A stretch of DNA of 64,000 nucleotides from an uncultured delta proteobacterium (GCA_963823335.1 CAWGLD010000005.1:224001-288000), one strand, 5' to 3'; numbered from the stretch's first letter, positions 1,585 through 31,777 are shown. Program-made: numbers and translations. The notes: generated from the sequence alone by a model not told the origin.

Positions 1585-2373
1585 ATGAAAAAGCAGGATA
1601 ATGGCAAAAATTCAAGCCGGCTGATTTCCCTGGCCGCTTCCATAACTGAAACCCTTTTCGCTTTGGGCTTAGACGACCGAGTGGTTGGCGTAACGGATAC
1701 CTGCGATTACCCTCCCAAAGTTTCGGATCTGCCGAACATCGGCTGCTGGTTCGAACCAAACTTGGAGACGCTTTACAGCCTAAAGCCGGACCTGGTCATT
1801 GGTTTGGAGACCGCCCATAGCGAATTGGCTGTACCGCTGAAACAAGCCGGTATCGGATTGAAGCTGATCAACCCGACAACCGTAGACCAGGCGATTGGAG
1901 TAATCGCCGAACTTGGAAGTTTTCTGGGGGCTGGCGAGGCAGAAATAATAGTGGATAGATTGAACACAAGGCTTAAGGCTTTGGACAACTCTGTTGCCAA
2001 AATACGTCGCTGTGACAGATTAACAACCTGCCGGATTCTTGAATTTGACGCAGGAGAGGTTTACGTGGCCGGCCCTTTGTCTTTCCAATACGACATTATC
2101 AGGCGGGCGGGTGGGATCAATGTCACCTCGGCACTGGTTGAGGCCTACCCGCGTATACTCCTGGAACAGCTTGTCGAACTTGACCCGAGTTTTATTTTTT
2201 ACTGCGGGTACAACCTGGATTACTTGGATAAAATGATGGGGAATCCGACCTGGCGTTCGATGCGTGCTGTTGAAACAGGTCGGGTTTATCGCTTTCCCTG
2301 CGAGTTGACCTGCCGTTTTGGACCCCGTATTGTGGATATGACCGAATTGCTTTATCAAAGATTGTATATCTGA
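1585..2373 (+). CDS. BtuF-like corrinoid-binding protein with no signal peptide
   Basis: RLISLAASITETLFALG, VVGVTDTCDYP, PNLETLYSLKPDLV, RFGPRIVD; paralogous to 33262-34176; start uncertain. Confidence 0.75.
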   Translation: MKKQDNGKNSSRLISLAASITETLFALGLDDRVVGVTDTCDYPPKVSDLPNIGCWFEPNLETLYSLKPDLVIGLETAHSELAVPLKQAGIGLKLINPTTVDQAIGVIAELGSFLGAGEAEIIVDRLNTRLKALDNSVAKIRRCDRLTTCRILEFDAGEVYVAGPLSFQYDIIRRAGGINVTSALVEAYPRILLEQLVELDPSFIFYCGYNLDYLDKMMGNPTWRSMRAVETGRVYRFPCELTCRFGPRIVDMTELLYQRLYI

Positions 2374-2476
2374 AACTGAACCTATTTGGTGTTACCCGAC
2401 AACCCGGATAGTCGTTTATACTTTGATCTGCCAGGCTAAAAAGGGAATATTAGGAAATATACACAAGGAGGGTATT

Positions 2477-2842
2477 ATGACAAAACTCACTGACGAAGCT
2501 AAAAAGGCTATTGGCGAAATTCGCCCATCGTTGGTTGCTACGGCAAGCAGGACAGGAAAACCAAATGTCTCCGCTAAAGGGTCGTTTCGTGTTCTGGATG
2601 ATGAAAACGTTATATTTGCAGACATAGCGTCTCCCCGAACTGTCGCCAACATCAGGGAGAATCCCCAGGTGGCCATTATCTGCTTGGACGCTGCGACGCG
2701 AAAGAGCTGCCGGATTTGGGGGAAGGGCAGTATCCTCACCTCAGGCGAACTCTTCCAACAATTAGCCGCTGAATATGCCAAGAAGAACATGGAAGTGAAA
2801 AATGTGGTAAAAGTGGCTGTGGAGGAGGTTGAGACCTTTTAA
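2477..2842 (+). CDS. Pyridoxamine 5'-phosphate oxidase-like FMN-binding protein
   Basis: AAGGAGG RBS; VATASRTGKPNVSAKGS, RTVANIRENPQVAI motifs. Confidence 0.8.
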   Translation: MTKLTDEAKKAIGEIRPSLVATASRTGKPNVSAKGSFRVLDDENVIFADIASPRTVANIRENPQVAIICLDAATRKSCRIWGKGSILTSGELFQQLAAEYAKKNMEVKNVVKVAVEEVETF

Positions 2843-3649
2843 ATGGCCAGACTGGGGATAATTGCCTGCCAAATCCTTGAGCTTGAGTTAGCCCATCTGC
2901 TTGTCAATGACATCGAGGTATTCGGTATTACCGTACTTGATAACGGTTTTGGCGATGGATTTTTTCGAGCGCTGAAACAGAAAGGGGAGAAAGCACTCAG
3001 GCTCACCGGAGACACGGGGAAGTATCTATCGCTCGAACCAGATCAGCTTGAGGTTGTTGTTCAGATCATGGAGTTAGGCCTGCACACGGTAATCAGAGCC
3101 CTCCGAACAACTGTGATCGATGCAGTGTCGGAGATGAGCACGCACGTGGATGCAATAGTGCTCGGGTATGGTCTGTGTGGGAATGCGCTCGACAATCACC
3201 AAGAGATCATCAGGGATATCGATATCCCCCTATTCATGCCCATGGATGAGGATCATACTGTGGACGACTGTGTCGGGCTTATCATTGGCGGACGCAAGGC
3301 TTATTATGAAGAGCAGTGCAAAATTGCCGGCACTTTTTTTATGAATGCCGGTTTTTCCCGTCATTGGAAGGACCTTTTACAGAAAGCGAATGCGGTTAAG
3401 TTTGATGAGGCGATGTCCAAGCGTATCATGGCGGGATATGAGAGAAGTCTTTTGCTGATCACGCCGGTTCTTTCCGAAGAGGAGATGGCTGCCAACATAG
3501 AAGATTTCAATCAAACATATGGACTGCGGACCGAGGTTCGTAAGGGAACGCTGGAGATTCTCGAGAGAACGTTGGTCAGGGGAAAGAATTTCGTATTGAA
3601 AAAAGGCGATAACCAGCATACTGATCGCGAAAAAAGAGCGAAAACTTAG
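2843..3649 (+). CDS. DUF1638 family protein (corrinoid methyltransferase-associated)
   Basis: IIACQILE, ELGLH, LGYGLCGNAL, DDCVGLIIGG motifs; starts directly after the upstream stop. Confidence 0.8.
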   Translation: MARLGIIACQILELELAHLLVNDIEVFGITVLDNGFGDGFFRALKQKGEKALRLTGDTGKYLSLEPDQLEVVVQIMELGLHTVIRALRTTVIDAVSEMSTHVDAIVLGYGLCGNALDNHQEIIRDIDIPLFMPMDEDHTVDDCVGLIIGGRKAYYEEQCKIAGTFFMNAGFSRHWKDLLQKANAVKFDEAMSKRIMAGYERSLLLITPVLSEEEMAANIEDFNQTYGLRTEVRKGTLEILERTLVRGKNFVLKKGDNQHTDREKRAKT

Positions 3650-3829: not shown

Positions 3830-4180
3830 TTAAAAATTAAAAACCTTTCCCTCAGCAATCAAATCGATTAGGTGAGGTGCGCCGTCCAGCAGCATATTGG
3901 AAAAAAACTTGGCCTCGTCCACCTGACGAGCGTTTGCGCACGGCGGTCAGACACCTATGGGAACTTCATTTTCGACCAAATAGGGTAAGTAATCATCGGG
4001 GCAGTCACCGGTAACGCTCTTTTCTTTGAAGTCGCGGGTGTTATCGGCCCACTTGACGCCATCCTCGATCAGGAAGATATTTACATTGTGCCCCTTTTCA
4101 TGGGTAAATTTTGCGAATTGAAAACATCTTGTGGCCAGATTGACATCATTCTTGCTGAGCGTGTATACAAAATTTGCCAT
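3830..4180 (-). CDS. DsrE-family selenoprotein (U-P-P-C), 116 aa
   Basis: GAGGAGG RBS; GHNVNIFLIEDGV DsrE motif; UGA at 3949-3947 reads through to PPCANARQVDEAKFFSNMLLDGAPHLIDLIAEGKVFNF*; SECIS-like hairpin 3930-3914. Confidence 0.9.
3914..3930 (-). promoter_or_regulatory. SECIS-like hairpin (DsrE)
   Basis: CUCGUC-AGGUG-GACGAG, 6-bp stem; loop starts 22 nt after UGA. Confidence 0.8.
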
Positions 4181-4265: not shown

Positions 4266-4778
4266 TCAAAGTTTCTGTTGACGGATCCCTGAGTAAACAG
4301 CTTTGCAGATTTCCGAAATACCTCCCTTTAGACCATCAGGGTTTTTGAATCCCTCGGTTCTTTTCAGGCTTTCAATATAGCCCTCTGCGGTTAAAAAAGA
4401 TTTGAGTCCATGCTCATCCGGCTCATCCGGTTTGATTTGGAACACCCAGCCCTCACCATATGGATCCCGTGATATGAGGGGCACATTCAGTTTTGAACTG
4501 TGGTTGAAATGGATGTGTCCGGAAAGAGGGGCATCAATATATTGGATTTTTCCGGTGATGCAAAAAATGACTGTTTGGCCCCTGGGGACGTGTTGCCCAT
4601 CCGATACAAGCCAGTCCAGATCGTTGATGCCCCCGGCCAGAACCAGGGAGGGTTCCGTGAGCCCGAAGACGATGAATTCTTGATTCGATTTGGCCCATAA
4701 TCCCTGCTTCCCAAAATAGCCTCGATCGCCCGGGACGCTTACACGTTTTCCCAAAAATTTTTCAATGACAGCCATCAA
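4266..4778 (-). CDS. GcvH-like (lipoyl-carrier fold) protein with C-terminal extension
   Basis: GLT, TGKIQYIDAPLSG, ISRDPYGEGWVFQIK match H-protein; extra tail GGISEICKAVY. Confidence 0.75.
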   Translation of the reverse strand: MMAVIEKFLGKRVSVPGDRGYFGKQGLWAKSNQEFIVFGLTEPSLVLAGGINDLDWLVSDGQHVPRGQTVIFCITGKIQYIDAPLSGHIHFNHSSKLNVPLISRDPYGEGWVFQIKPDEPDEHGLKSFLTAEGYIESLKRTEGFKNPDGLKGGISEICKAVYSGIRQQKL

Positions 4779-5010: not shown

Positions 5011-5961
5011 ATGAGTAAAATCCGGCGATATATTTATCAAACCCAGGGTGTCTGTCCCCCGGAAATTCATTTCCAGGTAAAGGACGCCATTCTTGAAAGT
5101 GTTCGTTTTGTTGGTGGAGGTTGCCCAGGGAATGCCCAACTTGTAGCGCGTCTGCTGGAGAGGAGGCCTATTGCCGAGGTGTTGCCGATCCTAAACGGGA
5201 TCGAGTGCAGCAAAGGAACATCATGCCCGGACCAGTTGTCAGAGGCAATAAGAAGGATGCAGCGCGGAGATCTCCGGCCGACTTCTTCCTTTCGTGTGGA
5301 GCAAGACTTGTCCTCAGAAAAAATGATCGGTCTCATCGGTGACCTAAACGGTGATCACCGGGTACTGCAACAGTTGATCGGATCAATGGCGGCATGTGGC
5401 GTTGAAGCGATTTTTTGCGCCGGTAACCTGACCGGTCCGGAAAAGGCAGATCGAAAGCTGATCAAGGAGATCGACGAAAAGGGTCTTCGGGCCATTACGG
5501 GAGACAGGGACTGGACGTATGCATGTGAAATGGAAGCGGCGAAGTTTCCGTTCATAGACAATAAAACTAGGGATTTTCTCGTCCGCCTACCTCAGGTGAT
5601 CAGCTTTCGCATAGGGGACAGAAATGGCGTGTTGTTTTTCGGCGATTATCTCCAAAGCATGTCGGGATATTCTGATTTTGAACCGTACGCACTGGAAATC
5701 AATATGGTTTGCGGCTTAACGGATTTCATGCGGGACGAAAGCGTATTCCCGGCACTGGAGGCCATGACCCCGCAGTTTCGAGCGGATATCATCGTATTCA
5801 GCCAAACCGGAAGATGGGGACATTGGCACGTGGCTGGCAAAGATTTTATCGGTCTGGGGCCCGCTGTCGGTATGGACGGCATGGCATGGGCGAGCCTGGA
5901 AATCAAATCCGGGGAGTTGAAATTTTCTAAAATAGTCACCAGTAACGCAGGCGGAGTCTAA
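5011..5961 (+). CDS. TSCPD (TIGR03905-like) domain fused to degenerate metallophosphoesterase domain
   Basis: TQGVC..GGGCPGN..CSKGTSCPDQL, then IGDLNGD, CAGNL, TGDRD (calcineurin-like pattern with altered ligands). Confidence 0.75.
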   Translation: MSKIRRYIYQTQGVCPPEIHFQVKDAILESVRFVGGGCPGNAQLVARLLERRPIAEVLPILNGIECSKGTSCPDQLSEAIRRMQRGDLRPTSSFRVEQDLSSEKMIGLIGDLNGDHRVLQQLIGSMAACGVEAIFCAGNLTGPEKADRKLIKEIDEKGLRAITGDRDWTYACEMEAAKFPFIDNKTRDFLVRLPQVISFRIGDRNGVLFFGDYLQSMSGYSDFEPYALEINMVCGLTDFMRDESVFPALEAMTPQFRADIIVFSQTGRWGHWHVAGKDFIGLGPAVGMDGMAWASLEIKSGELKFSKIVTSNAGGV

Positions 5962-5962: not shown

Positions 5963-6271
5963 ATGGTAGAACTTGTTCTTGTTGATGTGCTGCTAACCGA
6001 TTTCAATCAATGAATCGCCTGTGTCTATATGGCAGAATCGGTAAAGGTTTTACCGGAAGATATCAAGGCGATTATCGACGTTTATGAGTGGGATATGCGT
6101 ACACGTGAGGGTGTACAGCGCTTTAAAGAACTGAAAGCCAAATCCTTGCCGAGTGTCGCCCTGGACGGGAAACTGGTCTGGGAGTCCATTATTCCCATGC
6201 AGGAAGAAATCATTGCCAAAATTCAGGATCTTTACCGCCAAAAGAGTCAAGGAGTTTTAGATGCATCTTGA
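5963..6271 (+). CDS. Thioredoxin-fold selenoprotein (U-I-A-C), 102 aa
   Basis: ATG 5963 with GGAG RBS; MVELVLVDVLLTDFNQ-UGA(6011-6013)-IACVYMAES aligns with QCAACGYMMES of 21079; SECIS-like hairpin 6039-6055. Confidence 0.9.
6039..6055 (+). promoter_or_regulatory. SECIS-like hairpin
   Basis: CGGUAAA-GGU-UUUACCG, perfect 7-bp stem; loop starts 32 nt after UGA. Confidence 0.75.
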
Positions 6272-7241
6272 AGATGTGAATATAGAGGGGTTTAAATCAT
6301 TTTCCGAAGAAACCAACATGAGCTTCCAGCCGGGAATTGGTGTGATTATCGGCAATAACGGTGTGGGGAAGTCAAACATTCTGGACGCGATCGTGTGGGC
6401 GATGGGGGACAATGATCTGAATCGTATTCGCTGTTATGAGCAGGATGAGCTGTTTTTTGCAGGGAGTAAAGATTATCCGCCGGCATCAAGTATACGTGTA
6501 GAACTGAACCTGAAAGAGAGTCAGGAAAAGGACGCTGTTGGAATCAGGTTGGCGCGCGAAATGAACAAAGAGGGCCGTAATCGGTATTATATACAGGAAA
6601 AATCGTGTGATTGGGGCCTGTACAAACAGAATATTGATCGATACCATCTGGCTCATGCACTGAAAACAATTATTCGTCAGGAACACATCAACGACCTGCT
6701 TCGGCTAGATCCCCTGGAACGGGTTCAGTCGATTGGTGAACTGTTAGACAAGAAAGAGGACAATGAGGTGATTGTCCATTTACAGCAGAAAGTCGATCCC
6801 ATTTTCAAACGGTATATGTCCTATCTCATGCCCTCGGCCCATGTGGCCCTTCTCACACCGGAGTTTGACGGGAAGTTTGGAATGGATGTTGAAGTGATGC
6901 TGTCCGGCAACCGCGTGCGTCGTGTGCACCAGCTTTCAGGTGGTGAAAAAGCCGTAACCAGCCTGGCAATTAAGCTGGCCCTGTTTCGCGGGCTTGAAAG
7001 CCCCTTTTATCTGCTCGATGAAGTGGAACCCTCCCTTGACTACACCAACCACAAGTCCATGCAGGCTTTTTTAAAGGACGTTGCTTCCGAGAAACAACTG
7101 ATTATGATTACCCACCTACGCAGCACCATGGAGTTGGCCAACACACTTCACGGGGTACGCACCCGCTGGGACGGATCTTCATTCATGAAGTTCTATTTTG
7201 TTATGGAAGAAAGACTTTTAAGACTCTACAAGTGTTGCTAG
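6261..7241 (+). CDS. Miniature SMC-family ABC ATPase (head domains only), C-terminal CC
   Basis: GFKSF, Walker A GNNGVGKSN, IIRQ Q-loop, LSGGEK signature, LLDEVE Walker B, ITH H-loop; 326 aa, no hinge or long coiled coil. Confidence 0.8.
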   Translation: MHLEDVNIEGFKSFSEETNMSFQPGIGVIIGNNGVGKSNILDAIVWAMGDNDLNRIRCYEQDELFFAGSKDYPPASSIRVELNLKESQEKDAVGIRLAREMNKEGRNRYYIQEKSCDWGLYKQNIDRYHLAHALKTIIRQEHINDLLRLDPLERVQSIGELLDKKEDNEVIVHLQQKVDPIFKRYMSYLMPSAHVALLTPEFDGKFGMDVEVMLSGNRVRRVHQLSGGEKAVTSLAIKLALFRGLESPFYLLDEVEPSLDYTNHKSMQAFLKDVASEKQLIMITHLRSTMELANTLHGVRTRWDGSSFMKFYFVMEERLLRLYKCC

Positions 7242-7361: not shown

Positions 7362-8300
7362 ATGCTAACGGAAAAAATCCTCAAGGGGGATATAAAAGCT
7401 GCTGCGCGGTTGATGCGGGATATTGAAGACGACATTCCGGAAACGCACCATGAGCTCAAGCGCTTGTTAGCACATACCGGAGGCGCCCACATCATCGGTC
7501 TGACCGGTGCACCTGGCACAGGCAAATCCACGTTGATAGACAGCATGATCCACCTTCTGCGGAAGGAGGGAAAAAGCGTCGGTATTTTGGCCATCGATCC
7601 CACAAGCCCTTTGTCCGGCGGGGCCATCCTGGGCGATCGTGTGCGCATGCAAAGACATGCCGAGGATAAAAGCGTGTTCATCAAGAGTATTGCCACCCGG
7701 GGTCAATTAGGTGGCCTCGCGCGATCTGCCTTTGGTATCGTTTCGGTCCTGGATGCCATGGGCAAGGATGTAATCCTTGTCGAAACCGTTGGTGTCGGCC
7801 AGGATGAAGTGGATGTCATGCGCCTGGCCCACACCACAATCGTGGTTGTCACGTCGGAAATGGGTGACGGTATTCAGGCTATAAAATCCGGCATATTGGA
7901 GATTGGCGATATCTTTGTTCTCAACAAGGCCGACCAGATGGGCTCGGATACAACACCGAATAAAATCAAGATGATGCTCAACATGCGACAACTCCGGAAA
8001 GGTGCCTGGAATCCTCCGGTTGTGCAGACCATTGCTATTCGTGGTCAAGGTGTCGATGAGCTGCTGCGGCAGGCGCAAAAGCATCTTGTTTTATTAAAGA
8101 CCCAAGGACTGGATCAATTCCGAAAACAAAAGGCGCTTGCCGAACTCACGACCCACTTAAAAACTATTCTGGTTGAGCGTGCCTTATCGACCTTGGAACT
8201 CAAAAATGAGTGGCAAACGATAATTGACGGTATCGTCAAGGGTGAAATCGATCCCTGCAGTGCCGCAGAAGAACTTGTATCTGAACTATTGAAAAAATAA
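7362..8300 (+). CDS. meaB: MeaB/ArgK-family GTPase
   Basis: GAPGTGKST, AIDPTSPLSGGAILGDRVRM, ETVGVGQDE, NKAD. Confidence 0.9.
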   Translation: MLTEKILKGDIKAAARLMRDIEDDIPETHHELKRLLAHTGGAHIIGLTGAPGTGKSTLIDSMIHLLRKEGKSVGILAIDPTSPLSGGAILGDRVRMQRHAEDKSVFIKSIATRGQLGGLARSAFGIVSVLDAMGKDVILVETVGVGQDEVDVMRLAHTTIVVVTSEMGDGIQAIKSGILEIGDIFVLNKADQMGSDTTPNKIKMMLNMRQLRKGAWNPPVVQTIAIRGQGVDELLRQAQKHLVLLKTQGLDQFRKQKALAELTTHLKTILVERALSTLELKNEWQTIIDGIVKGEIDPCSAAEELVSELLKK

Positions 8301-8317: not shown

Positions 8318-9364
8318 TCAGGTCTGGGCACGGTCTTTTAGATTTGATTTAAGGCAGGTTCTTAGCTGTTGCAGTATTTCTTCAGCCTGGATATTCCATC
8401 CGATAAATGCCAGTAGCGTTCCTGCTGGTTCCTTCCAATGGGACCATTCAGCTTTGCCTCCAACGAAGTTGACAAAAGCGGCGCGGTCCTGAAACTGAAC
8501 CGGTCCTTTTATACGAAAAAGTTCCCAGGGCAGCCCATGGATAAAAGCGTTGAAACAATCCTCGTCCAGCGCTTCGACGGACTGAAAGGAAAATGTCACG
8601 AACCCGGAAGCATCAATGCCTTTCACGTTTCCACATCCTCCCTCATCAGGTTTTATTTCTCGACTGTCCGAATCCTTTTTCGAGATAGCCGAATCCGGCG
8701 AATAATGCTTGAAGAAGCTGATCGGTTTCAAGTCAACCACATTAGAGGTGTGTTTTTCAAGAAGGGCTGCAGGATCGATATTACACTGGATGGTCGGTAT
8801 CACACGGGTTGTGGGGAAGAGCTCGTGGATTTCTTTCAGGTACGATGATATACGCTGCTTTTGGAGCAGGTCGATTTTGTTCAGTAAAATCAAGTCGGCT
8901 ATTTCAAGCTGATGATAAAACAGAGCCCCGAATATTTCGCGGCCTTCCCACAAATCAGCATCCAGCACGGTAATGGTTTTTGTTAGCGCGAGTTTTCCAA
9001 ACAGGTCTTTTTCCTGGAGTATGGCTCTGATGGATATCGGGTCGGCCACGCCGGAAGGCTCTATCAGAATCCGTGACGGGCTGAAACGTTCCATGATGCT
9101 TTGGAGAGCCTGCCTGAGATCCGCGACGAGCGTGCAGCAGATACATCCGCTGGTCAGTTCGACAACATCCGACCCGCTGTCTTTCAAAAGCGAACCGTCA
9201 ATACCCACATTTCCGAATTCATTCACCAGGACAACCGTACCTGACAGGTCGTCGTCCCATGTCAGAATACGTTTCAATAGCGTTGTTTTCCCTGAACCCA
9301 GAAATCCCGATACTAAAATGACATCTGTGCTGATTTTTTGTGATAATTGAGAAGTATTTTTCAT
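8318..9364 (-). CDS. COG0523/CobW-family metallochaperone GTPase
   Basis: SGFLGSGKTT, NEFG, GCICC, EPSG, NKID, RIKG. Confidence 0.9.
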   Translation of the reverse strand: MKNTSQLSQKISTDVILVSGFLGSGKTTLLKRILTWDDDLSGTVVLVNEFGNVGIDGSLLKDSGSDVVELTSGCICCTLVADLRQALQSIMERFSPSRILIEPSGVADPISIRAILQEKDLFGKLALTKTITVLDADLWEGREIFGALFYHQLEIADLILLNKIDLLQKQRISSYLKEIHELFPTTRVIPTIQCNIDPAALLEKHTSNVVDLKPISFFKHYSPDSAISKKDSDSREIKPDEGGCGNVKGIDASGFVTFSFQSVEALDEDCFNAFIHGLPWELFRIKGPVQFQDRAAFVNFVGGKAEWSHWKEPAGTLLAFIGWNIQAEEILQQLRTCLKSNLKDRAQT

Positions 9365-9997: not shown

Positions 9998-10030
9998 AAT
10001 TTAGATTAAGATCCTTACAGGGAACAGCCC

Positions 10031-10633: not shown

Positions 10634-10640
10634 TATCACC

Positions 10641-15808: not shown

Positions 15809-15880
15809 ACGCTCGTAATGTGACACCCTTGCAGGAACGGTTGAAATAAATGAAATCTGAAAAATAAGGAGAGAATACCT

Positions 15881-18734: not shown

Positions 18735-18757
18735 ATAGTATTGAGATCGAAACACAC

Positions 18758-23367: not shown

Positions 23368-24291
23368 GTGACGATGGATATGTATGATTTGATGATTGTT
23401 GGTGCGGGACCTGCAGGCATGACCGCTGCATTGTATGCGCAGAGGATGGGGCTGGATGTGCTTGTTTTTGGCGATATTGCCGGGGGCAGCACGTATATGA
23501 TCGAACAACTGAACAATTTTCCCGGGTTTATGAACGGGATTCCTGGAACCCAGTTCGGTCTTCAAACGTTTCAGCAGGCACAGCAAGAAGGCGCTTTCTT
23601 TACCATGACCCGGTTGGACGGCCTTTCTTTTGCAAACGGGCGGTTTATCGGAACCGATGCGGCCGGGAAATCGATCGTCGCAACGTGTGCCATTGTCGCT
23701 ACCGGAAGAACCCCCCAAAGATTGGACATTCCAAACGCAAATCTGAAAGGCATTCATTTCTGCTCGATATGCGATGGCCCTCTTTACAGGAACAAGCATG
23801 CGCATCTATCGGTCATCGGAAGCGATAACGCTGCCGGGCAGCATGCCATAGCCCTATCACGGGTGGCGGACAAAGTGCTCTTGGTTTGTCGGAGCGAGCA
23901 GCTGCTGATGGATGCTGTGCACCGGAAACAGATCGCATCCAAACAGAATCTCGATGTGCTTTGCGGAGTCGAAGTCTTGGGCTACGAGGGTCTCGACATG
24001 ATCGAGGGCATGAGGGTCAGGACAATGGAAGGTACTGAAAAACTATTGCCGGTGGATGGTGTCTTTCTGGCCATTGGCTGGCAACCGAATACAGGAATGC
24101 TGGATCTTGCCGCCGATACCACAGCGGAGGGCTATTTGAAGACCGATGAAAAATTAATGACCTCATTTCCAGGACTTTTTGCCGCCGGAGATGTCCGTAA
24201 TACAGATATGTGGCAGGTGTTGACGGCGTGTGCCGACGGCGCAAGGGCTGCCAAGCATGTTGCTGGGTTTTTATCGATCAGCCGACAATAA
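23368..24291 (+). CDS. Thioredoxin reductase-like flavoprotein
   Basis: GAGPAG, NFPG, ATG, CSICDG, GLFAAGDV; second Rossmann motif altered (GSDNAA). Confidence 0.85.
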   Translation: MTMDMYDLMIVGAGPAGMTAALYAQRMGLDVLVFGDIAGGSTYMIEQLNNFPGFMNGIPGTQFGLQTFQQAQQEGAFFTMTRLDGLSFANGRFIGTDAAGKSIVATCAIVATGRTPQRLDIPNANLKGIHFCSICDGPLYRNKHAHLSVIGSDNAAGQHAIALSRVADKVLLVCRSEQLLMDAVHRKQIASKQNLDVLCGVEVLGYEGLDMIEGMRVRTMEGTEKLLPVDGVFLAIGWQPNTGMLDLAADTTAEGYLKTDEKLMTSFPGLFAAGDVRNTDMWQVLTACADGARAAKHVAGFLSISRQ

Positions 24292-24316: not shown

Positions 24317-25462
24317 GTGAAAGCACCGAAACCATTGACGCCAAACTCACCGGTCAAACTGATATTTACCGGTGGATTTCTAGGAACGGGCAAAACCACA
24401 GCCCTTGCAGTATTGGCAAGAGAACTCATCGGTCAGGGTAAACGGGTCGGAATTATAACCAACGACCAAAGCGAAAACCTGGCGGATACGATCATTGTCA
24501 AGCAGTTACTCGGCGAGTTGGGTGTGCCGGTAGAGGAGGTTGTTGAGGGTTGTTTCTGCTGCAAATTCGATGAGCTTATCGATCAGATGGAGAAAATTCT
24601 CGTACACAAACCGGATGTCCTGATGGGTGAACCTGTGGGGAGTTGTACCGATTTTGTCGCGGCGGTTGCCAACCCCATAAAGATTCATTACAGGGATGCT
24701 TTCAGATTCGCACCATTTTCAACCATGGTAGACCCTGTTCGGGTTGGGGAATTTCTGATGGAGGACACCCAGACGACTTTTCCAGAGGAAGTGTCCTATC
24801 TTTTTCGCAAGCAGCTGGAGGAAGCGGACCTGATTGTGCTGAACAAGATCGACCAGTTATCCGATCCGGAAAGAGAGCGGCTTGTGGACGTTCTCAAGAA
24901 AAACTATCCTAAAAAGGAAGTGATGCCTGTGTCGGCAAAATACGGAAACGGTATGTCCGAATGGCTCGATGTCTTGCTTTCCGGAAGCCCCGGTGCGGAC
25001 ACGGTTTTGCATGAAATCGACTACGATCGTTATGCCAGAGCCGAGGCAGTGCTGGGATGGCTCAATGCTGCCGTAAAAATTACCGCCGACCGGTCGTTCG
25101 ATTCCGCAGTATGTTTGCGGGATCTGGCAGTAAAGTTAAGAGATGCCTTCCGGGAGATAAATGCCGGTATCGGCCATATAAAAATTGTCATGACCAGTGC
25201 CGGAAAATCCATGTGGGTCAATCTTACCCACCTGGCCGCCGAACCGATGCTCAGCGATAAACAGCTGGGAGATATCCCCGGGGGCAGTCTCATTGTCAAC
25301 GCCAGGGTTCAGATCGTTCCCGAGGTACTGGAAACCATCGTGCGCAGCGCCATTGAAGAGACATCCGTTTCACAAGGCTTTCGATGGGAAATCATCGACC
25401 TGCAATGCTTCAGCCCGGCATATCCTAACCCGCCTTACCTGGTTCGTGAAGAAAGCGTCTAA
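24317..25462 (+). CDS. COG0523-like GTPase
   Basis: GAGGAGG RBS before GTG; GGFLGTGKTT, TNDQ, GCFCC, EPVGSC, NKID. Confidence 0.85.
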   Translation: MKAPKPLTPNSPVKLIFTGGFLGTGKTTALAVLARELIGQGKRVGIITNDQSENLADTIIVKQLLGELGVPVEEVVEGCFCCKFDELIDQMEKILVHKPDVLMGEPVGSCTDFVAAVANPIKIHYRDAFRFAPFSTMVDPVRVGEFLMEDTQTTFPEEVSYLFRKQLEEADLIVLNKIDQLSDPERERLVDVLKKNYPKKEVMPVSAKYGNGMSEWLDVLLSGSPGADTVLHEIDYDRYARAEAVLGWLNAAVKITADRSFDSAVCLRDLAVKLRDAFREINAGIGHIKIVMTSAGKSMWVNLTHLAAEPMLSDKQLGDIPGGSLIVNARVQIVPEVLETIVRSAIEETSVSQGFRWEIIDLQCFSPAYPNPPYLVREESV

Positions 25463-25496: not shown

Positions 25497-25790
25497 ATGA
25501 AAGAGATAGAAAAAATCCATCTCGAAGTACTGCACGAAGGTGCGCATTGAATCCCCTGCGAATACATGACCAGGGTGGTCGAATCTGTGGCGCCGGATTT
25601 TGGTGAGCGTTTGCAATGGGAAAAAGTCGTGACCAAAGAAATGAAAGGTGCCTTGAGGTACGGAGAATTATCAAAAAGCATCGGGCGCCCGGCGCCTGTT
25701 CCCTCTATCTTTATCAATGGAAAACTGGTTTTTGAACAGACGCCGAGCACTGAGGATCTTGCGGGGTTCCTGGAAAAACTGGTTGTTTGA
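25497..25790 (+). CDS. Thioredoxin-fold selenoprotein (U-I-P-C), 97 aa
   Basis: AAGGA RBS; MKEIEKIHLEVLHEGAH-UGA(25548-25550)-IPCEYM..APVPSIFINGKLVF aligns with CLPCFYM..APVPSLFIDGELVF of 28170; SECIS-like hairpin. Confidence 0.9.
25567..25581 (+). promoter_or_regulatory. SECIS-like hairpin
   Basis: UGACCA-GGG-UGGUCG; loop starts 22 nt after UGA. Confidence 0.7.
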
Positions 25791-25810
25791 TGCCAAAAGG
25801 AGATATTTGT

Positions 25811-26056
25811 GTGATCCGGATTGAAGTTATCGGTTTAGACCCCCCTTGCAGGAAATGCAACGAGCTGTTCGCCAACGTAAAACAGGCACTGGAGGAAATG
25901 GGGTTCGAAGCCGAAGTCTCAAAAAAATGGACCCTGTCCCAAGAAATTCGAACTGCATACGGCCTGCTGCTCAGCCCGGCACTGGCAATTGAAGGCGTGG
26001 TGGTTTTCCAGGGTAAGGTGTTCAAACCGGAACGTATTAAGGACCTTTTACGCTGA
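25811..26056 (+). CDS. Small thioredoxin-family protein
   Basis: AAGGAG RBS before GTG; IEVIGLDPPCRKC, SPALAIEG. Confidence 0.8.
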   Translation: MIRIEVIGLDPPCRKCNELFANVKQALEEMGFEAEVSKKWTLSQEIRTAYGLLLSPALAIEGVVVFQGKVFKPERIKDLLR

Positions 26057-26062
26057 ATCGTT

Positions 26063-26365
26063 ATGAAAACAAGGAATAAGAAATCCGACGCCAATGCCCG
26101 TGAATTGTATAAAAAGGGATGCGAGCTGAAGCGTGCCGGCAACCTCAGGGCGGCTGTCGCCAGTTTTTCAAAAGCGATCGATTGCGACACTCAATTTGCG
26201 GAAGCCTATTTTTCGAGAGGTGCGAGTTATTATCTGCTGGGCCAATATCAACTTGCCGGGATGGATATGGATGCGGCTGTGCTGCTTGGATGCCAGGATG
26301 CCCAGTTGTGGAGCAGATTCGACATGCATTATATGACGGAATCAGACGAGGACAGGGATACCTAA
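26063..26365 (+). CDS. TPR protein
   Basis: FSKAI..AEAYFSRG..LGQY..A TPR pattern. Confidence 0.7.
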   Translation: MKTRNKKSDANARELYKKGCELKRAGNLRAAVASFSKAIDCDTQFAEAYFSRGASYYLLGQYQLAGMDMDAAVLLGCQDAQLWSRFDMHYMTESDEDRDT

Positions 26366-26467: not shown

Positions 26468-27967
26468 TCATGAATCCAAATCGAGGAGTTCGAGTGCAGC
26501 GTCGGTTGGAGACATTCGACCCTCTTTTACGGCGCCGGTCAGTTTCAGAACCTTGGTTTTAGATCGTTTGTAAAACCGCTCTTTTAAACCTTCTTCCACA
26601 AGCGACCACATCCAATTTACGGATTGCCGGCGTCTTTTCTGTGAAAACTCACCCGATGCTTCCATTCTGGATCGGTAGTCCGAAATGGCCTGCCATATGT
26701 CGATGATGCCGTCCATGTTTTTTGAACTGCAGGTGAGAACCGGTACTTTCCATGCCGGGGACTCCTGTTTGACGATGCTCAGTGCGGATTCATAAATTTT
26801 TTTTGCTTCCCTGGCTTTTTCAATGTTGTCCCCATCGGCCTTGTTGATGACGATGGCATCCGCCAGTTCCAATATGCCTTTCTTGATCCCTTGAAGTTCG
26901 TCTCCTGCACCGGTGATCATCAACATCAGAAAAAAATCGACCATTGATGCCACATGTGATTCCGACTGACCGATACCCACGGTTTCCACCAGCAAGATTT
27001 CATATCCTGCAGCCTCGCAGATGACCATACTTTCTTTGGTTTTTTTTGCGATGCCGCCTAAAGTGCCGCCGGAGGCAGAGGGGCGGATAAATGCGTTCGG
27101 ATGGCCCGAGAGCCGTTTCATTCGGGTTTTGTCTCCTAGAACACTACCTCCGGTTTTCGAACTGCTGGGATCTACCGCTAGAACCGCCACACGATGCCCC
27201 ATATCGGCGAGCATTGTCCCGAAACTTTCTATAAATGTACTTTTACCTGCACCTGGAACGCCTGATATGCCGATGCGTAAAGCTTTACCCGATAAAAGCA
27301 GCAGTTGTTCGATAAGTTGGTCGGCTACCTGGCGATGTCCGGCCCGAGTGTCTTCAATGAGGGTTATGACCTTGGCGATAACCGCCCTGTCCCCGGCAAC
27401 GACGCCATCGATACATTGTCTCAGCTCAGGACGGGTTTGTTTTCTTTCCTCTAAATGGTAGAGTAATCGAGATAACCCCGATACTATATCATGACCAATA
27501 TCCAGGACTTCGTCGAAGCCGAATTCCTGATGTTTGTTTTCGACTTCCTCAAAGGCCTGCTTCCAGGCGACATTTAAAATTTTGCCACCCGATGCAACAG
27601 AAACAGCTTCCACCAGTCGGGTGACGGATGATTCCGATAGTTTGTAATCGAACGGAAACAGGACAGCATGGACATCGTTCTCAACGGCAGCTCGGGCTGT
27701 TTGTCCATGGGGAAGCCCTCCGGGATGGATATCCACGTCAAACCCCCACTGGGAAAAGGCGGTGGGAACGAGATTGTCAATACGGTTCGCGCTATTTGAT
27801 ACAATGCCACAAAGAAGAATTCTTGGCCGGCGCCCCATCCTTTGTTCGAAAAGGTCCGTTCTCCGGTTGAGAGTATGAGAGATGGTGTTGTCCAGAAGAA
27901 TGCTTTTAAAGCGTGCGAACAGGTTTCGGTTCCCAGGTCGCGTTTTATTTGCTTGGATTTGGCGCAT
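26468..27967 (-). CDS. meaB: Fusion of degenerate mutase-type B12-binding domain and MeaB GTPase
   Basis: GRRPRILL..GFDVDI..ARAAVENDVH without DxHxxG; then GVPGAGKST, DPSS..GGSVLGDKTRM, ETVGIGQSE, NKAD. Confidence 0.85.
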   Translation of the reverse strand: MRQIQANKTRPGNRNLFARFKSILLDNTISHTLNRRTDLFEQRMGRRPRILLCGIVSNSANRIDNLVPTAFSQWGFDVDIHPGGLPHGQTARAAVENDVHAVLFPFDYKLSESSVTRLVEAVSVASGGKILNVAWKQAFEEVENKHQEFGFDEVLDIGHDIVSGLSRLLYHLEERKQTRPELRQCIDGVVAGDRAVIAKVITLIEDTRAGHRQVADQLIEQLLLLSGKALRIGISGVPGAGKSTFIESFGTMLADMGHRVAVLAVDPSSSKTGGSVLGDKTRMKRLSGHPNAFIRPSASGGTLGGIAKKTKESMVICEAAGYEILLVETVGIGQSESHVASMVDFFLMLMITGAGDELQGIKKGILELADAIVINKADGDNIEKAREAKKIYESALSIVKQESPAWKVPVLTCSSKNMDGIIDIWQAISDYRSRMEASGEFSQKRRRQSVNWMWSLVEEGLKERFYKRSKTKVLKLTGAVKEGRMSPTDAALELLDLDS

Positions 27968-28169: not shown

Positions 28170-28508
28170 ATGGGAAACGGAAATAAAATTCTACTGGAAG
28201 TGATGTACAAGGCAAGTTATTGCCTGCCCTGTTTCTATATGGATGAAACCGTACTCGAAATTCTCCCGCAATATGCAGATCAGGTGGAGTATCGTCGGGT
28301 GGAATTCATGAAGGGAAGTGGAAAGAAACGCTTTTTCGAGTTGTCTTACGCACTTTTCGGAAAGGAAAACGTCCACAAATATGCCCGTGTGGCACCTGTC
28401 CCCTCACTGTTTATCGATGGTGAACTGGTTTTCGATGCCATTCCGCCCATGTTCGAACTGGAAGAGGCGATTCTTGAGGCATTGGAAAAAAGGGGAATTG
28501 ATACTTGA
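28170..28508 (+). CDS. Thioredoxin-fold protein (C-L-P-C)
   Basis: YCLPCFYM, APVPSLFIDG; Cys paralog of 25497. Confidence 0.82.
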   Translation: MGNGNKILLEVMYKASYCLPCFYMDETVLEILPQYADQVEYRRVEFMKGSGKKRFFELSYALFGKENVHKYARVAPVPSLFIDGELVFDAIPPMFELEEAILEALEKRGIDT

Positions 28509-28512
28509 AATT

Positions 28513-29031
28513 TTATTTTTCGATGCCGACGCGTGCCTTTACACCGCTCTGATAATAGTGCTTACGGGCTTTCATCTGGGTCACCGTATCTGCATTTTCG
28601 ATTACGCGAGGTGACGCATAGCGCCCGGTGATGATCAATTCCAGAGAATGGGGTTTGTTGATAATTAATCCCAGGAGATCGTTTGCGGCAATTAATCCGA
28701 GTCTGACGGCCACGGTGATTTCATCCAAGACCATCATGTTATATTTGTTTTCAGCCATGATGGTCCTAACCCGTTTTAACCCGATCTGGGCCGCGAGAAT
28801 ATCTTCGGGTTTGGGGTTCCTGTCGGTAAACGTTCCGAGACCGTATTGCTCTACCGTTATTTGGTCGCTGAGTCTTCTGAACGCTTTGATTTCACTATAC
28901 TCCCCTTTTTTTACAAACTGTGCGAAAAATATCTTGAAGCCTGAGCCTGCAGCCCTTATGGTCAGACCTATGGCTGCTGTTGTTTTCCCCTTGCCATCAC
29001 CTGTGAGAACATGTACATAGCCCTTAGACAT
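28513..29031 (-). CDS. cobO: Cob(I)alamin adenosyltransferase CobO/BtuR
   Basis: TGDGKGKTTAAIG, QFVK, VLDE, ITGR, KHYY..G..GIE. Confidence 0.9.
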   Translation of the reverse strand: MSKGYVHVLTGDGKGKTTAAIGLTIRAAGSGFKIFFAQFVKKGEYSEIKAFRRLSDQITVEQYGLGTFTDRNPKPEDILAAQIGLKRVRTIMAENKYNMMVLDEITVAVRLGLIAANDLLGLIINKPHSLELIITGRYASPRVIENADTVTQMKARKHYYQSGVKARVGIEK

Positions 29032-29182: not shown

Positions 29183-30487
29183 ATGTCCATTCTGTTTGAA
29201 AAAACGCGCCTCAACAATCTGACGCTGAACAACCGTTTTATTCGGTCTGCCACATGGGCCGGCATGGCAGGCGAAGACGGTATCGTGACACCGAAACTCC
29301 TAAAGCTGATGGGCGATCTTGCCGACGGGGGCGTGGGTCTGATTATCACCGGTCATGCCTATGTGCACCCGAATGGAATCCATTCTGCCGGACAACTTGG
29401 CATCGACCGGGATCTGCTTATACCGGGATTGGAGCAGATGACACGTTTGGTGCATGAGAAAAGCGCAAGAATTTTCGCCCAGCTTGGATACGGGGGCTCC
29501 TATCTGTCCCAATCCAGGGTGGCCAATATGTCGACCATGGATATAGGGGCTGTCAGTGACGCCTTCGCTTTGGCAGCGGACAGGGCCAGACGTGCCGGGT
29601 TTGACGGGGTTCAGATTTTAGCGGCCCACGGGTTTTTGCTGAGCCAGTTTCTCTGCCCGAGATACAACCCGCGTCGGGACGGATACGGGGGATCACTTGA
29701 AAACCGTGCCAGAATGCTACTGGAAGTTCTGAATGCCATAAGGAAAACAGTCGGTTCCGAATTTCCGGTGCTCGTAAAATTAAATGCCAGCGACGGGGTC
29801 GAAAACGGCATGACCCTGCAGGAATCCCTAAAAGTTGCCGATAGGCTTCAGGAAGAGGGGGTCGATGGTATAGAACTCAGTGGAGGCTTGTTGAACGTCG
29901 CCAATCTTATGGAGGCTAGCGGCGGCGATGAAGAGAACAACGTTTACTTCGAAGACGCAGCCGGTATCTATAAAAAATCCATTCATGTCCCTCTAATACT
30001 GGTGGGTGGTATTCGATCTTTTGCAAAGGCTGAAAGTCTGGTTTCATCCGGCACGGCTGATTATATCGGCATGTGCAGGCCCCTGATTTGTGAGCCGGAT
30101 CTGGTTTCCCGCTGGAAATCTGGAAACACGGAAAAGGCGTCATGCATTTCGTGCAATAATTGTGTTCAGGAAGCCATAAGAGGATCGGGGATAGCATGTG
30201 CGCCACCACAGGAAAAAAAAGTGGAACAGACCTTTTTTCCCCATAAGGAGATCCGGCTGCCTGCCGGACTTCCTTTTCCGCCGGGTACAAGTTATATTGT
30301 ATCCATCGGTCTTGAGCAATGGGGCGCCACCTACCTGCCGGTGACCAAGATTCAGATGCTTGTTAATGGGAAGACTCTGGGACACGGGCTCTCCATCCCC
30401 CAAGACAGTCGAGACAGACAGAAAATATTCCGGGTGGTAGAAACGCTCATGTCCGGGGATGTTGAGAAGGAAAACACCAACAAATGA
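29183..30487 (+). CDS. NADH:flavin oxidoreductase (OYE family) with C-terminal extension
   Basis: NRFIRSATW, AGFDGVQILAAHGFLLSQFL, N.R.D.YGGSLENR, CISCNNC. Confidence 0.88.
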   Translation: MSILFEKTRLNNLTLNNRFIRSATWAGMAGEDGIVTPKLLKLMGDLADGGVGLIITGHAYVHPNGIHSAGQLGIDRDLLIPGLEQMTRLVHEKSARIFAQLGYGGSYLSQSRVANMSTMDIGAVSDAFALAADRARRAGFDGVQILAAHGFLLSQFLCPRYNPRRDGYGGSLENRARMLLEVLNAIRKTVGSEFPVLVKLNASDGVENGMTLQESLKVADRLQEEGVDGIELSGGLLNVANLMEASGGDEENNVYFEDAAGIYKKSIHVPLILVGGIRSFAKAESLVSSGTADYIGMCRPLICEPDLVSRWKSGNTEKASCISCNNCVQEAIRGSGIACAPPQEKKVEQTFFPHKEIRLPAGLPFPPGTSYIVSIGLEQWGATYLPVTKIQMLVNGKTLGHGLSIPQDSRDRQKIFRVVETLMSGDVEKENTNK

Positions 30488-31128
30488 TCAAAAATGTTTG
30501 GGTGCTGGGTGCGGGAAAATTTGGTCTTAAAGCGGTTGAGCGGGTCAAACAGATGCACCCGGAGGTGGATTTAACCGTTATTGATATAATAGAGCATCCC
30601 GGGTCGATGCTTTCAGCCCATGGCGTGGTGTATGTTCGCAGAGACGGGATCGAATTTCTCGATAAGAAGCTGTTAGAAACCGGAGGACCGGATTGGATTA
30701 TTCCGGCCATTCCGGTTCATGTAGCCTGTGAGTGGATAAAACGCAGGCTGTCCTCGATCCGTGCTGTTCAGAACATGAATCTGCCCGAACGGTTAGCAGA
30801 CCTGCTCCCCAACACCTTGCAGGGAACACACGGGGAATTGTACAGCAGCATGGCCGATTTTTTATGTCCGGACGACTGTATCGAACCCTATGGCATTTGT
30901 ACAATTACAAATGAGAAAAGGGCTTATCGGCTATACGATTTGCTGTCATCGATTCAGCTCGAGCCCTACAAAACAGTGGTTGTCAAAAGTCGGCAGATAT
31001 GTGCCGGTGTCGGGGGGTATCGGCCGGCTGACTTAATCGGCACCCTGGAAGATATCCGGCGGTATGACGCACCCATATTGTTGAGCACATCCTGTAAATG
31101 CCATGCGGTAGTAAGTGCTTTTCAGTAG
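30484..31128 (+). CDS. Hypothetical Rossmann-fold, Cys-rich protein
   Basis: VLGAGKFG; CPDDCIEP..C; STSCKCH. Confidence 0.65.
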   Translation: MIKNVWVLGAGKFGLKAVERVKQMHPEVDLTVIDIIEHPGSMLSAHGVVYVRRDGIEFLDKKLLETGGPDWIIPAIPVHVACEWIKRRLSSIRAVQNMNLPERLADLLPNTLQGTHGELYSSMADFLCPDDCIEPYGICTITNEKRAYRLYDLLSSIQLEPYKTVVVKSRQICAGVGGYRPADLIGTLEDIRRYDAPILLSTSCKCHAVVSAFQ

Positions 31129-31261
31129 ACCCCATAGTTGCATAAACAACATGGCAAAGTATAGATAATAAGCTGTTATTATATACAATACCGTTGCGAT
31201 AGCGCCATTCTTTTGCAACACTGGGGTAGATTGTCCGGTCCAGGACATCTGACCTGGATAT

Positions 31262-31777
31262 CTATTTTTCGATACCCTTCCTTGCCGGAACACCTTTCTG
31301 GTAATAGTGCTTTATCTCTATCATCTCGGTAACAAGATCGGCTGCCTCCATGACGACAGGTGCCGCCCCCCTTCCCGTGATCACCAGCTCAATTTCATTG
31401 GGTTTGGCGGCAATAAGATCGAGAAGACGCTGGACGTCGAAAAGCCCGCAGGCGGTTGCCACGTTGCCCTCCTCGATGATGATTAGGTCGTATTTGCGGG
31501 AGAGAAGGACACGTTCTATACGCTCTAGACCGGCCTGCGCAGCATCGACCTCATCCTGGGGTGGTTTGTCCTTGATAAAATGACCAAGACCATACTGTTC
31601 GACACTAATGAGATCGGAAAATTTGGCAAGCGTTTTTATCTCGCTGTAATCACCCTTTTTCAGAAACTGGGCGATGAATACTTTCAGGTCAGCCCCGGCG
31701 GCGCGTATGGCTAAACCTATCGCTGCTGTGGTTTTCCCTTTACCGTTTCCCGTGTATATCTGTACAAATCCCTTCAT
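31262..31777 (-). CDS. cobO: Cob(I)alamin adenosyltransferase CobO/BtuR, second copy
   Basis: TGNGKGKTTAAIG, QFLK, ITGR, KHYYQKG; ATGA overlap with upstream gene. Confidence 0.9.
   Translation of the reverse strand: MKGFVQIYTGNGKGKTTAAIGLAIRAAGADLKVFIAQFLKKGDYSEIKTLAKFSDLISVEQYGLGHFIKDKPPQDEVDAAQAGLERIERVLLSRKYDLIIIEEGNVATACGLFDVQRLLDLIAAKPNEIELVITGRGAAPVVMEAADLVTEMIEIKHYYQKGVPARKGIEK

Follow-up and report, generated by a model that had tools for sequence, protein, structure and literature searches.

A ~30-kb gene island of an uncultured delta proteobacterium encodes four selenoproteins whose selenocysteine (Sec) residues lie at in-frame UGA codons. One of them, MtaA2, is predicted to adopt the UroD/MtaA fold and apparently represents a selenoprotein family unlisted so far. 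The island spans positions 1585..31777 of the analyzed DNA, a 64-kb window (GCA_963823335.1 CAWGLD010000005.1:224001-288000; contig C5, 224001-288000) of a 4.37-Mb genome. Judged by gene neighborhoods, MtaA2, the thioredoxin Trx2 and a COG0523 GTPase (CobW2) are a portable module. We tentatively read MtaA2 as a reversible transferase between methyl-corrinoid and a thiol, possibly sulfide, that would feed a relay to folate, and rate this reading slightly short of an even chance. A first-pass annotation had proposed a corrinoid methyl-transfer system with Sec recoding at this place, which gene content and recoding tests support. The selenoprotein genes, their Sec insertion sequence (SECIS)-like hairpins and the module genes are:

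3830..4180, minus strand: Sec-DsrE (UxxC), UGA 3949-3947, PF02635; a listed family, loosely linked to the cluster
3914..3930, minus strand: DsrE SECIS-like hairpin, kept in 14 TGA loci
5963..6271, plus strand: Trx1, Sec thioredoxin-fold protein (QUIAC), UGA 6011; paralogue of Trx2 (42% identity), below the NF047660 cut-off
6038..6056, plus strand: Trx1 SECIS-like hairpin
20017..21051, plus strand: MtaA2, Sec-bearing protein of predicted UroD/MtaA fold with His27, Phe231 (His-ligand position), Cys233, Asp254 and Sec312 (UGA 20950)
20966..20982, plus strand: MtaA2 SECIS-like hairpin, 7-bp stem, 3-nt loop starting GG
21079..21468, plus strand: Trx2 (CAAC), found constantly with MtaA2 and, in Cys relatives, part of one fusion protein with it
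22290..23324, plus strand: COG0523 GTPase 2 (CobW2), third module member
25497..25790, plus strand: Trx4, HUIPC-family selenoprotein above the NF047660 cut-off, UGA 25548, hairpin 25568-25580

All four TGAs claimed by the first-pass annotation, at 3949-3947 (minus strand, DsrE), 6011 (plus, Trx1), 20950 (plus, MtaA2) and 25548 (plus, Trx4), were found in place and in frame. Read-through yields complete proteins of 116 aa for DsrE (GV-U-PPC, PF02635), 102 aa for Trx1 (Q-U-IAC), 344 aa for MtaA2 (APG-U-DMP) and 97 aa for Trx4 (H-U-IPC; NF047660 151.8 bits, cut-off 105). Alignment of homologues showed the UGA to be conserved, with Cys at the same position in others. For MtaA2, TGA was present in 80/80 loci (the best 80 of 162 loci found, many on short contigs), the Cys forms being P0023/76/108/116. 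Its nearest database proteins are 307-311 aa long in 116 of 120 cases, which is the length up to the UGA, and the other four are full-length with Cys. Trx1 showed TGA in 27 of 28 matches, the remaining match not covering the site, and Cys only in its paralogue Trx2. Trx4 homologues of at least 45% identity comprised 16 with TGA and 8 with Cys (16/24), and of 15 DsrE loci, that of the window among them, 14 had TGA.

A hairpin past each UGA, claimed at 20-32 nt, was recovered with the first G of the loop at 21, 23, 24 and 33 nt. The hairpin rule, which was written after seeing the four sites, accepted 4/4 of them compared with 34/1423 long open reading frames (ORFs) ending in TGA in the same genome. 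Among homologues it accepted 73/80 MtaA2, 21/26 Trx1 and 0/16 Trx4 sequences, and among Cys-coded controls 0/76, 2/35 and 0/8, respectively (2/119 in total). The Trx4 hairpin is the weakest of the four, its stem of only 4-5 bp being kept in 17/17 sequences without compensatory change, while two sequences carry a compensatory change at one pair of the Trx1 stem. The DsrE hairpin is absent from the one Cys locus. Of the 192 conserved multi-codon positions of MtaA2, only four use a single codon throughout, and these (D317, V318, P319 and E321) are the ones that make up the hairpin stem. The genome also holds the required machinery, with selA, selB and selD above cut-offs and tRNA-Sec (selC) present. 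Sequencing error or a pseudogene at the UGAs was considered and ruled out by UGA conservation and Cys/Sec pairs. By every sequence test run, all four UGAs are Sec codons.

Twelve other TGA-ending genes were checked for hidden Sec and none reads through. In the same genome, selD itself (L083, G000:C5:144246-145172) contains an in-frame TGA. Two further candidates came from other loci: a Trx6-like gene with a stop inside its match (L217, near 10929), possibly a further Sec form, and an ArsM-like methyltransferase ORF adjoining a Sec-DsrE (L012:3787-4395), which corresponds to the first 202 of 459 positions of the selenoprotein model NF041536 and may likewise be read through.

The predicted structure of MtaA2 (predicted local distance difference test, pLDDT, 90) matched best the M. 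mazei MtaA (PDB 4AY7/4AY8), with a template modeling (TM) score of 0.85, E 2e-20 and 22% identity. In MtaA, the His, Cys and Cys positions bind zinc (PMC10418091; the papers cited here by PMC number are represented by excerpts, to which statements about them refer). Sec312 aligns with the Cys of the MtaA APGC motif, the last Zn-ligand Cys, and Cys233 with the Cys of HxC. The Cys-equivalent placement of the UGA in the first-pass annotation therefore stands for the MtaA2 Sec, with the nuance that the position of the His ligand is taken by Phe (76 of 80; Leu in 4). His27 is kept in 76 of 80, and the invariant Asp254 is, in our reading of the alignment, the match of the exchangeable carboxylate. 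MtaA1, encoded in the same island, keeps His-Cys-Cys (LHICG, PGCD), matches M. mazei MtaA with E 2.5e-48 and is 21% identical to MtaA2. Both fall short of TIGR01463 (cut-off 235.4 bits; MtaA1 205.0, MtaA2 116.8) and of NF004889.

With respect to family status, NCBIfam of June 2026 contains no model whose cut-off MtaA2 passes, and no UroD/MtaA entry occurs in the whole of Table 1 of PMC13188914, the 2026 list of 119 families. A search of the ESM Atlas returned matches only in UroD and glutaredoxin-like clusters, and the Cys-form family is large: of 7999 scored proteins, at least 7176 reached E 1e-60 or better. No publication on this Cys-form family was found. The combination had been flagged as not known from a described system, and in the searchable literature we found no paper on Sec-MtaA or an MtaA-Trx-COG0523 unit; the source of the HUIPC family (Haft and Tolstoy 2025), which lay outside that search, may describe the neighborhood. 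A term search of the excerpts of PMC1976440 and PMC12013277 gave no mention of MtaA or uroporphyrinogen.

Extension of the analysis toward gene neighborhoods comprised the 80 Sec loci, with presence defined as within 10 kb of MtaA2, and 80 metagenome loci of the fused form. In this form, seen in Cys relatives of 27-38% identity and in thousands of Cys relatives overall, an MtaA2-like protein is fused to a Trx2-like domain. The Sec loci contained Trx2 in 76, CobW2 in 64, DUF6951 in 58, RACo in 49, the corrinoid protein in 44, TrxB in 38, MtaA1 in 37, MtrH in 23, GcvH in 11 and DsrE in 1. Considering only loci with room, i.e., those whose contig extends far enough to hold the neighbor, a thioredoxin directly follows MtaA2 in 76/76 Sec and 76/76 fused loci, and a COG0523 gene is present in 54/58 and 34/38, respectively. 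A corrinoid gene was detected in 39/54 Sec and 19/25 fused loci of at least 12 kb. The complete fused set showed the Trx domain in 80, COG0523 in 62, a corrinoid gene in 39 and RACo in 16 loci, and His27/Phe231/Cys312 are kept in 74/80 of these distant loci. Of the accessory genes grouped with the methyltransferases by the first-pass annotation, the thioredoxin Trx2 is a constant partner of MtaA2; the COG0523 GTPase is another. DsrE and GcvH are peripheral on these counts, and both are missing from all 25 long fused loci. The DsrE of the window lies ~16 kb from MtaA2, hence outside the 10-kb flank, and in 14 other DsrE loci no island gene was found within 1.5 kb.

Neighbors of the fused loci were scanned in 108 ORFs (106/116 selected after 11 near-duplicate loci were dropped, and two others). 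Nine loci have PocR-AraC regulators, four have further UroD proteins and one has MtaB; none of these ORFs belongs to a pterin-binding, homocysteine-methyltransferase or ars family. Methionine-synthase pieces occurred near the fused family in 1/80 loci only. MtrH is absent from the 25 long fused loci, and together with the missing pterin-binding neighbor this calls for a non-folate second step there. Several variants of the neighborhood were recorded. P0126 and 539-aa family matches are triple fusions of MtaA2-like, Trx2-like and MTH895/ArsE-type thioredoxin domains, named entries being mostly Prolixibacteraceae. A sub-cassette of PadR (N-terminal CxC), CobW3, Trx5 and a MIP channel occurs in L002, L010, L045, L048 and L075, PadR and MIP each being found in 11/80 loci. 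A B12-dependent radical SAM gene stands between regulator and MtaA1 (L002:2638-4515, also L026 and L030-L034), mostly at the place of the MtrH gene in the window, and a sensor kinase with an N-terminal corrinoid-binding domain adjoins the Sec-MtaA2 operon in L075 (16940-19618; also L073 and L077).

The module is not confined to one first-step enzyme. A second Sec-MtaA2 copy (69%) in the same genome (contig C7, L084) belongs to an operon with a corrinoid protein, a pyrrolysine-free MtmB-like gene, a methionine-synthase activation domain and MttB, facing hutU-hutH; operons of this MtmB/MttB type are kept in relatives, mostly with Trx2 and CobW2. MtaB lies beside the module in L141, from the fused-locus scan, and beside the Sec module in L213 and L214. 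An MtaB operon in L215 (G526) contains homologues of the corrinoid protein (60% identity to the window), RACo (51%), MtrH (46%), MtaA1 (45%), PNPOx and DUF6951 without the Sec module. Across 32 shared loci, identity to the window has a median of 61% for MtaA1 (48 to 85%), compared with 84% for MtaA2 and 82% for the corrinoid protein. A quick tree of 97 rows united the 70 Sec rows in one clade (Shimodaira-Hasegawa-like approximate likelihood ratio test, SH-aLRT, 94) and placed MtmB contexts in two Sec subclades and one Cys fusion. As the module is found with unrelated first-step enzymes, the selenium/thioredoxin apparatus would serve the corrinoid step and not one substrate.

The L084 copy itself is prolonged by a short stretch similar to the end of Trx2 (L084:6420-7494), with Trx2 and CobW2 missing there though present in most relatives, which looks like a deletion. 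The MtmB-like, MttB and corrinoid protein genes under a HutC-type regulator facing hutU-hutH (L084:2610-15661, L107-L113) form a candidate N-methylhistidine demethylation pathway.

The partner swapping bears directly on the idea of a dedicated demethylase for one methyl-sulfur compound, such as dimethyl sulfide (DMS) or methanethiol, in which thioredoxins, DsrE and GcvH-like carriers would handle the sulfur. MtaA1 has the His-Cys-Cys set typical of S-methyltransferases (PMC10418091), the host is a sulfate reducer with acetyl-CoA synthase, and the idea overlaps the thiol-transferase reading if the thiol is sulfide; to this extent the methyl-sulfur substrate guessed in the first-pass annotation is plausible. 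The selenium module also accompanies amine- and methanol-type first-step enzymes, though, MtaA1 is variable between loci, and DsrE and GcvH are as rare as given above, so that we regard such a demethylase as improbable. A shared role of DsrE, GcvH and the thioredoxins in processing what a single substrate releases is not supported.

For the transfer steps themselves, the following genes of the window are relevant:

2843..3649, plus strand: DUF1638 protein (PF07796), linked to corrinoid reactivation (PMC5764234)
13754..14710, plus strand: MtrH-family methyltransferase (PF02007; NF002142 286.2, cut-off 287), putatively catalyzing the methyl-corrinoid:folate step
14756..15808, plus strand: MtaA1, UroD-fold methyltransferase with intact His-x-Cys...Cys, variable between loci
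15881..16540, plus strand: corrinoid protein (PF02310 and PF02607)
16674..18734, plus strand: RACo reductive activator
18758..19742, plus strand: DUF6951 (18758-19156; 58/80 loci) and DUF2284 (ORF 19104-19742; 45/80 loci)
23374..24291, plus strand: TrxB-like flavoprotein disulfide reductase (TIGR01292 233 bits, below the cut-off of 343; 38/80 loci)

We propose a mechanism in two layers. In the first, by analogy with the established three-component scheme leading to methyl-folate, the corrinoid protein would receive a methyl group from MtaA1 (Zn, His-Cys-Cys), the MtrH-family enzyme would hand this group on to folate for oxidation via the Wood-Ljungdahl pathway, and RACo and DUF1638 would restore Co(I). 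In the second, the MtaA2/Trx2/COG0523 module would dock on the same corrinoid protein regardless of the first-step enzyme. There MtaA2 would catalyze reversible methyl transfer from methyl-corrinoid to a small thiol (CH3-S-X), as MtaA, MtbA and MtsA do, with sulfide/methanethiol as first guess, at a remodeled site of paired Cys233 and Sec312 together with Asp254, possibly also His27. Trx2 and TrxB might keep this site reduced, and the COG0523 GTPase might load its metal. This chemistry, its direction, the identity of the thiol and the roles of Trx2 and the GTPase are inferred. A transferase is favored by the fold of MtaA2 and by its place beside MtaB and MtmB, which is that of MtaA and MtbA, often without a folate enzyme nearby.

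Docking was modeled with the Cys homologue P0023 (80% identical) and the corrinoid protein of the window, giving a score of 0.70 compared with 0.00 for the best control. The score mark was reached by 116/157 solved and 2/215 mismatched pairs, counts that are only roughly valid with our own alignments. No fewer than 44% of contacts recur between runs, the partner has a pLDDT of 73 or higher, and contacts connect residues 152-160 and 200-205 of the MtaA2 homologue (conserved RIFTDVYK and SQI) with the corrinoid cap motif 62-68. The model supports, without showing it, that the MtaA2 family binds the corrinoid protein.

Several points weigh against the thiol-transferase reading. The His ligand is lost in 80/80 loci, which leaves MtaA-like zinc catalysis uncertain; a folate-directed enzyme, that of the MtrH family, is encoded in the window anyway; and L215, with Corr-RACo-MtrH-MtaA1 and MtaB yet without the Sec module, indicates that methyl transfer to folate can do without the module. 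No neighboring gene points to sulfide as acceptor. The complex model was built with a homologue of another organism in place of MtaA2, its score may reflect likeness within the family, and it is equally compatible with the main rival explanation. According to this rival, the module maintains the corrinoid and has no part in methyl flux: Cys233/Sec312 would remove a thiolate or another incorrect upper ligand from Co(III), or reduce it, the selenenylsulfide would be reduced by Trx2/TrxB, and the GTPase would help to load the cofactor. It draws on thiolato-corrinoid chemistry. The lost His ligand, the Cys/Sec pair with its dedicated thioredoxin, the indifference toward first-step enzymes and the dispensability of the module in L215 all suit a repair function, as do the neighboring RACo, DUF1638, methionine-synthase activation domain, two CobA, two MeaB and B12 uptake genes. 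In many fused loci, however, the MtaA2-like protein is the only recognizable methyltransferase-fold gene with a corrinoid protein and RACo, often behind one of the PocR-AraC small-molecule regulators, which reads like a catabolic unit. It also counts against repair that, to our knowledge, no repair enzyme has the UroD/MtaA fold. Altogether we consider corrinoid maintenance unlikely while treating it as a serious contender.

The thiol-transferase reading can be taken further. MtaA2-Trx-COG0523 would then be the methyl-corrinoid:sulfide methyltransferase of non-methanogenic anaerobes, working via a thioredoxin-recycled Cys/Sec instead of a His-Cys-Cys zinc site, by which fermenters would dump methyl groups as methanethiol, while sulfate reducers with an MtaA1-MtrH relay would run the reaction in reverse on methanethiol or DMS. 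In this specific form we hold it to be doubtful.

The remaining genes of the island are as follows:

1585..2373, plus strand: BtuF-like periplasmic binding protein (PF01497), peripheral, near MtaA2 in 5/80 loci
2477..2842, plus strand: flavin mononucleotide (FMN)-binding PNPOx-like protein (PF01243), whose homologue next to MtrH in the MtaB operon of L215 is 31% identical
4266..4775, minus strand: GcvH-related protein, NF045810 above cut-off, 11/80 loci
5011..5961, plus strand: TSCPD-metallophosphoesterase fusion, 7/80 loci
6261..7241, plus strand: short SMC-type ATPase with Cys-Cys end, 8/80 loci
7362..8300, plus strand: MeaB-type GTPase
8318..9364, minus strand: COG0523/CobW GTPase 1
9479..10633, plus strand: two V4R-type proteins (9479-9997, 10031-10633), weak matches
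10524..13512, plus strand: PAS/HisKA_3 sensor kinase (start uncertain, without PocR domain) and LuxR-type regulator (12850-13512)
21603..21905, plus strand: 100-aa protein with two CxxC motifs, no family match, 35/80 loci
22041..22286, plus strand: Trx3, MTH895/ArsE-family thioredoxin, TIGR00412 above cut-off
24317..25462, plus strand: COG0523 GTPase 3
25787..26365, plus strand: Trx5 (TIGR00412-like, 25787-26056) and TPR protein (26063-26365)
26468..27967, minus strand: B12-binding-domain/MeaB fusion
28170..28508, plus strand: Trx6 (CLPC), HUIPC-like Cys form, NF047660 73.4, below cut-off, 39/80 loci
28513..29031, minus strand: CobA/BtuR corrinoid adenosyltransferase 1
29183..31128, plus strand: OYE-type flavoprotein (29183-30487) and 214-aa protein without family (30484-31128), peripheral, 5/80 loci each
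31262..31777, minus strand: CobA/BtuR corrinoid adenosyltransferase 2

All gene classes named by the first-pass annotation are present in this set, including six Trx-fold proteins. The GcvH-related protein has Lys in its ITGK motif in 10/11 homologues and a C-terminal GICKAVY in 11/11, and the SMC-type ATPase, which is devoid of a long coiled coil, follows Trx1 in the 8/80 loci. Another explanation is a metalloid function, in which MtaA2 would methylate or demethylate, e.g., As(III), with methyl-corrinoid as donor, in a methylation/thiol-reduction cycle of the kind carried out by ArsM. Consistent with this are the Cys/Sec pair with Trx and TrxB, the MIP channel and PadR of the sub-cassette, the ArsE-family thioredoxins, one of them fused in P0126, and DUF2284, which is also fused to ArsM in NF041536. 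With no ArsR, Acr3 or ArsC family among 32 recurrent neighbor ORFs or the 108 fused-locus ORFs, and with hutUH and MtaB contexts unrelated to arsenic, we regard this function as very unlikely.

Nearest named homologues of the window are mostly Desulfobacterales, and the genome contains both dsrA and acetyl-CoA synthase, by which the host is classified as a sulfate reducer with acetyl-CoA synthase. The MtaA2 family was found in 10/14 same-family genomes, in 11/400 genomes of a phylum sample (8 TGA, 2 Cys, 1 distant) and in 18/162 genomes of the class of G041, 17 with TGA, two of these being L213 and L214. Cultured carriers are, for example, Desulfotomaculum copahuensis (L052) and Desulfococcaceae HSG9 (L021). 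MtaA1 was detected in 0/9 same-genus and 4/40 related genomes. Composition gives no sign of recent transfer, the GC content being flat at 0.46-0.52 across the island; patchy presence is the only such sign. A further explanation is that MtaA2 is a corrinoid-dependent homocysteine methyltransferase forming a split methionine synthase with MtrH. The UroD/MetE fold and the activation domain beside MtaA2 in the C7 operon and L184 would fit, and RACo and DUF1638 serve methionine synthase in Phaeobacter (PMC5764234). The genome, however, has three separate homocysteine S-methyltransferase domains, and a housekeeping step would hardly be expected on a 30-kb island that is under sensor control and lacking in 9/9 genomes of the genus, leaving this explanation with little probability.

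Adjoining the island, a B12 uptake block (33262-39377) consists of a BtuF/BtuC/BtuD-type ABC transporter, DUF4465, a TonB receptor and a cobalamin riboswitch (RF00174, 36079-36306, 85.7 bits); the latter was the single match of the Rfam scan and is located outside the island. The reverse-frame translation of an intergenic stretch at ~1230-1405 nearly equals ORF L085:6742-7122 on C7, suggesting a dispersed repeat. Contigs from RNA libraries covered 26-30/30 bins in three estuary runs and 3/30 in one marine-sediment run; contigs cannot show transcription, and as DNA is not excluded, no inference was drawn.

If confirmed, the finding brings selenocysteine to an enzyme fold not represented among the families of the 2026 list, with a new selenoprotein family whose database entries are cut short at the UGA. 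We know of no bacterial enzymes identified for sulfide methylation or for methanethiol and DMS oxidation in sediments, and sulfate reducers were reportedly dominant in the oxidation of both compounds in a study of mangrove sediment. As the Cys forms need no recoding for expression and lend themselves to assays with methylcobalamin, the question is directly testable. In freshwater sediments, methanethiol and DMS derive largely from sulfide methylation (PMC7374477).

In comparison with known systems, MtaA2 shares its predicted fold with the methylcobamide:coenzyme M methyltransferases MtaA, MtbA and MtsA, having Cys233 and Sec312 at two Zn-ligand positions, and layouts of first-step enzyme, corrinoid protein and MtaA-like protein recur with MtaB and MtmB. 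Where MtaA has its His ligand and its last Cys, MtaA2 has Phe and Sec, respectively; further differences are the conserved N-terminal His27 and the thioredoxin and COG0523 partners.

Type-1 mlp clusters and SdmABC of M. voltae resemble the window in their several MtaA-like genes, corrinoid protein, Ram/RACE and occurrence in Sec-using anaerobes, and methyl-S/Se chemistry has been proposed for them; ClMlp2 methylates selenide and, more slowly, sulfide (PMC10418091, PMC11097638). The mlp layout (at least 2 Mlps, corrinoid protein and Ram/RACE, co-directional with gaps of at most 2 kb) is present at 14756-21051 with a largest core gap of 1.3 kb, which agrees with the first three criteria of PMC10418091 and would favor methylselenide scavenging in this Sec-using genome. 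Unlike these clusters, which have no folate methylase within 20 kb and whose Mlps are His-Cys-Cys (PMC10418091), the window has the MtrH-family gene at 13754-14710, against the fourth criterion, and MtaA2 lacks His-Cys-Cys and, at 22% to MtaA, lies below the 25% working definition of an Mlp. Sdm-like genes rise on selenium starvation (PMC11097638), when a cluster spending selenium on three or four proteins would be handicapped. The excerpted Mlp descriptions do not mention Sec, a thioredoxin array or a COG0523 module. Methylselenide scavenging is thus extremely unlikely.

We assess halomethane dehalogenation after mec, cmu or cdm as equally remote, so that of the substrates guessed in the first-pass annotation only methyl-sulfur compounds are retained. 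These systems (PMC9768040, PMC13222342) share with the window a UroD-fold first-step enzyme, a corrinoid protein, a second methyltransferase, an activase, a DUF1638-type helper and a two-component system, gene classes that are generic. The window has a PAS/HisKA_3 kinase in place of the PocR sensor kinase, neither the MecJ cation transporter nor a CmuA-type methyltransferase-corrinoid fusion, and no Sec module is described in the excerpts on these systems. CdmB, described there as zinc-free in contrast to MtaA1 with its kept Zn ligands, has no entry among the solved-structure matches listed. By the features tested, the cluster belongs to none of the type-1 mlp, mec, cmu and cdm systems, being set apart by gene content and motifs, not by orthology; it would work like the corrinoid systems of the MtaA/MtsA and Desulfofundulus types.

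The methanol-induced operon of Desulfofundulus kuznetsovii 17 / D. salinus, comprising two MtaA, UroD-like and corrinoid proteins, P47K (COG0523), ferredoxin-type activators, an MtrH-like and an FMN-binding protein (PMC5770442, PMC11206085), resembles the window in its listed gene classes, and the gene classes of L215 are those listed for it. A downstream block of this type (corrinoid protein, activase, MtrH-like, FMN-binding and MtaA-like proteins) is homologous in the MtaB operons L213 and L215. The difference lies in MtaB, for which the ORFs of the window gave no PF12176 match, this search being confined to the window, and in the lack of Sec-MtaA2 and a thioredoxin array in L215. Among the smaller proteins, Trx1 (41.3 bits) and Trx6 (73.4) fall below the NF047660 cut-off of 105, and Trx1, being nearer to Trx2, may represent an unlisted QUIAC subfamily, while Trx4 (151.8) is by score a member of this HUIPC family and the DsrE of the window carries the motif of the listed DsrE-like UxxC selenoproteins (PF02635).

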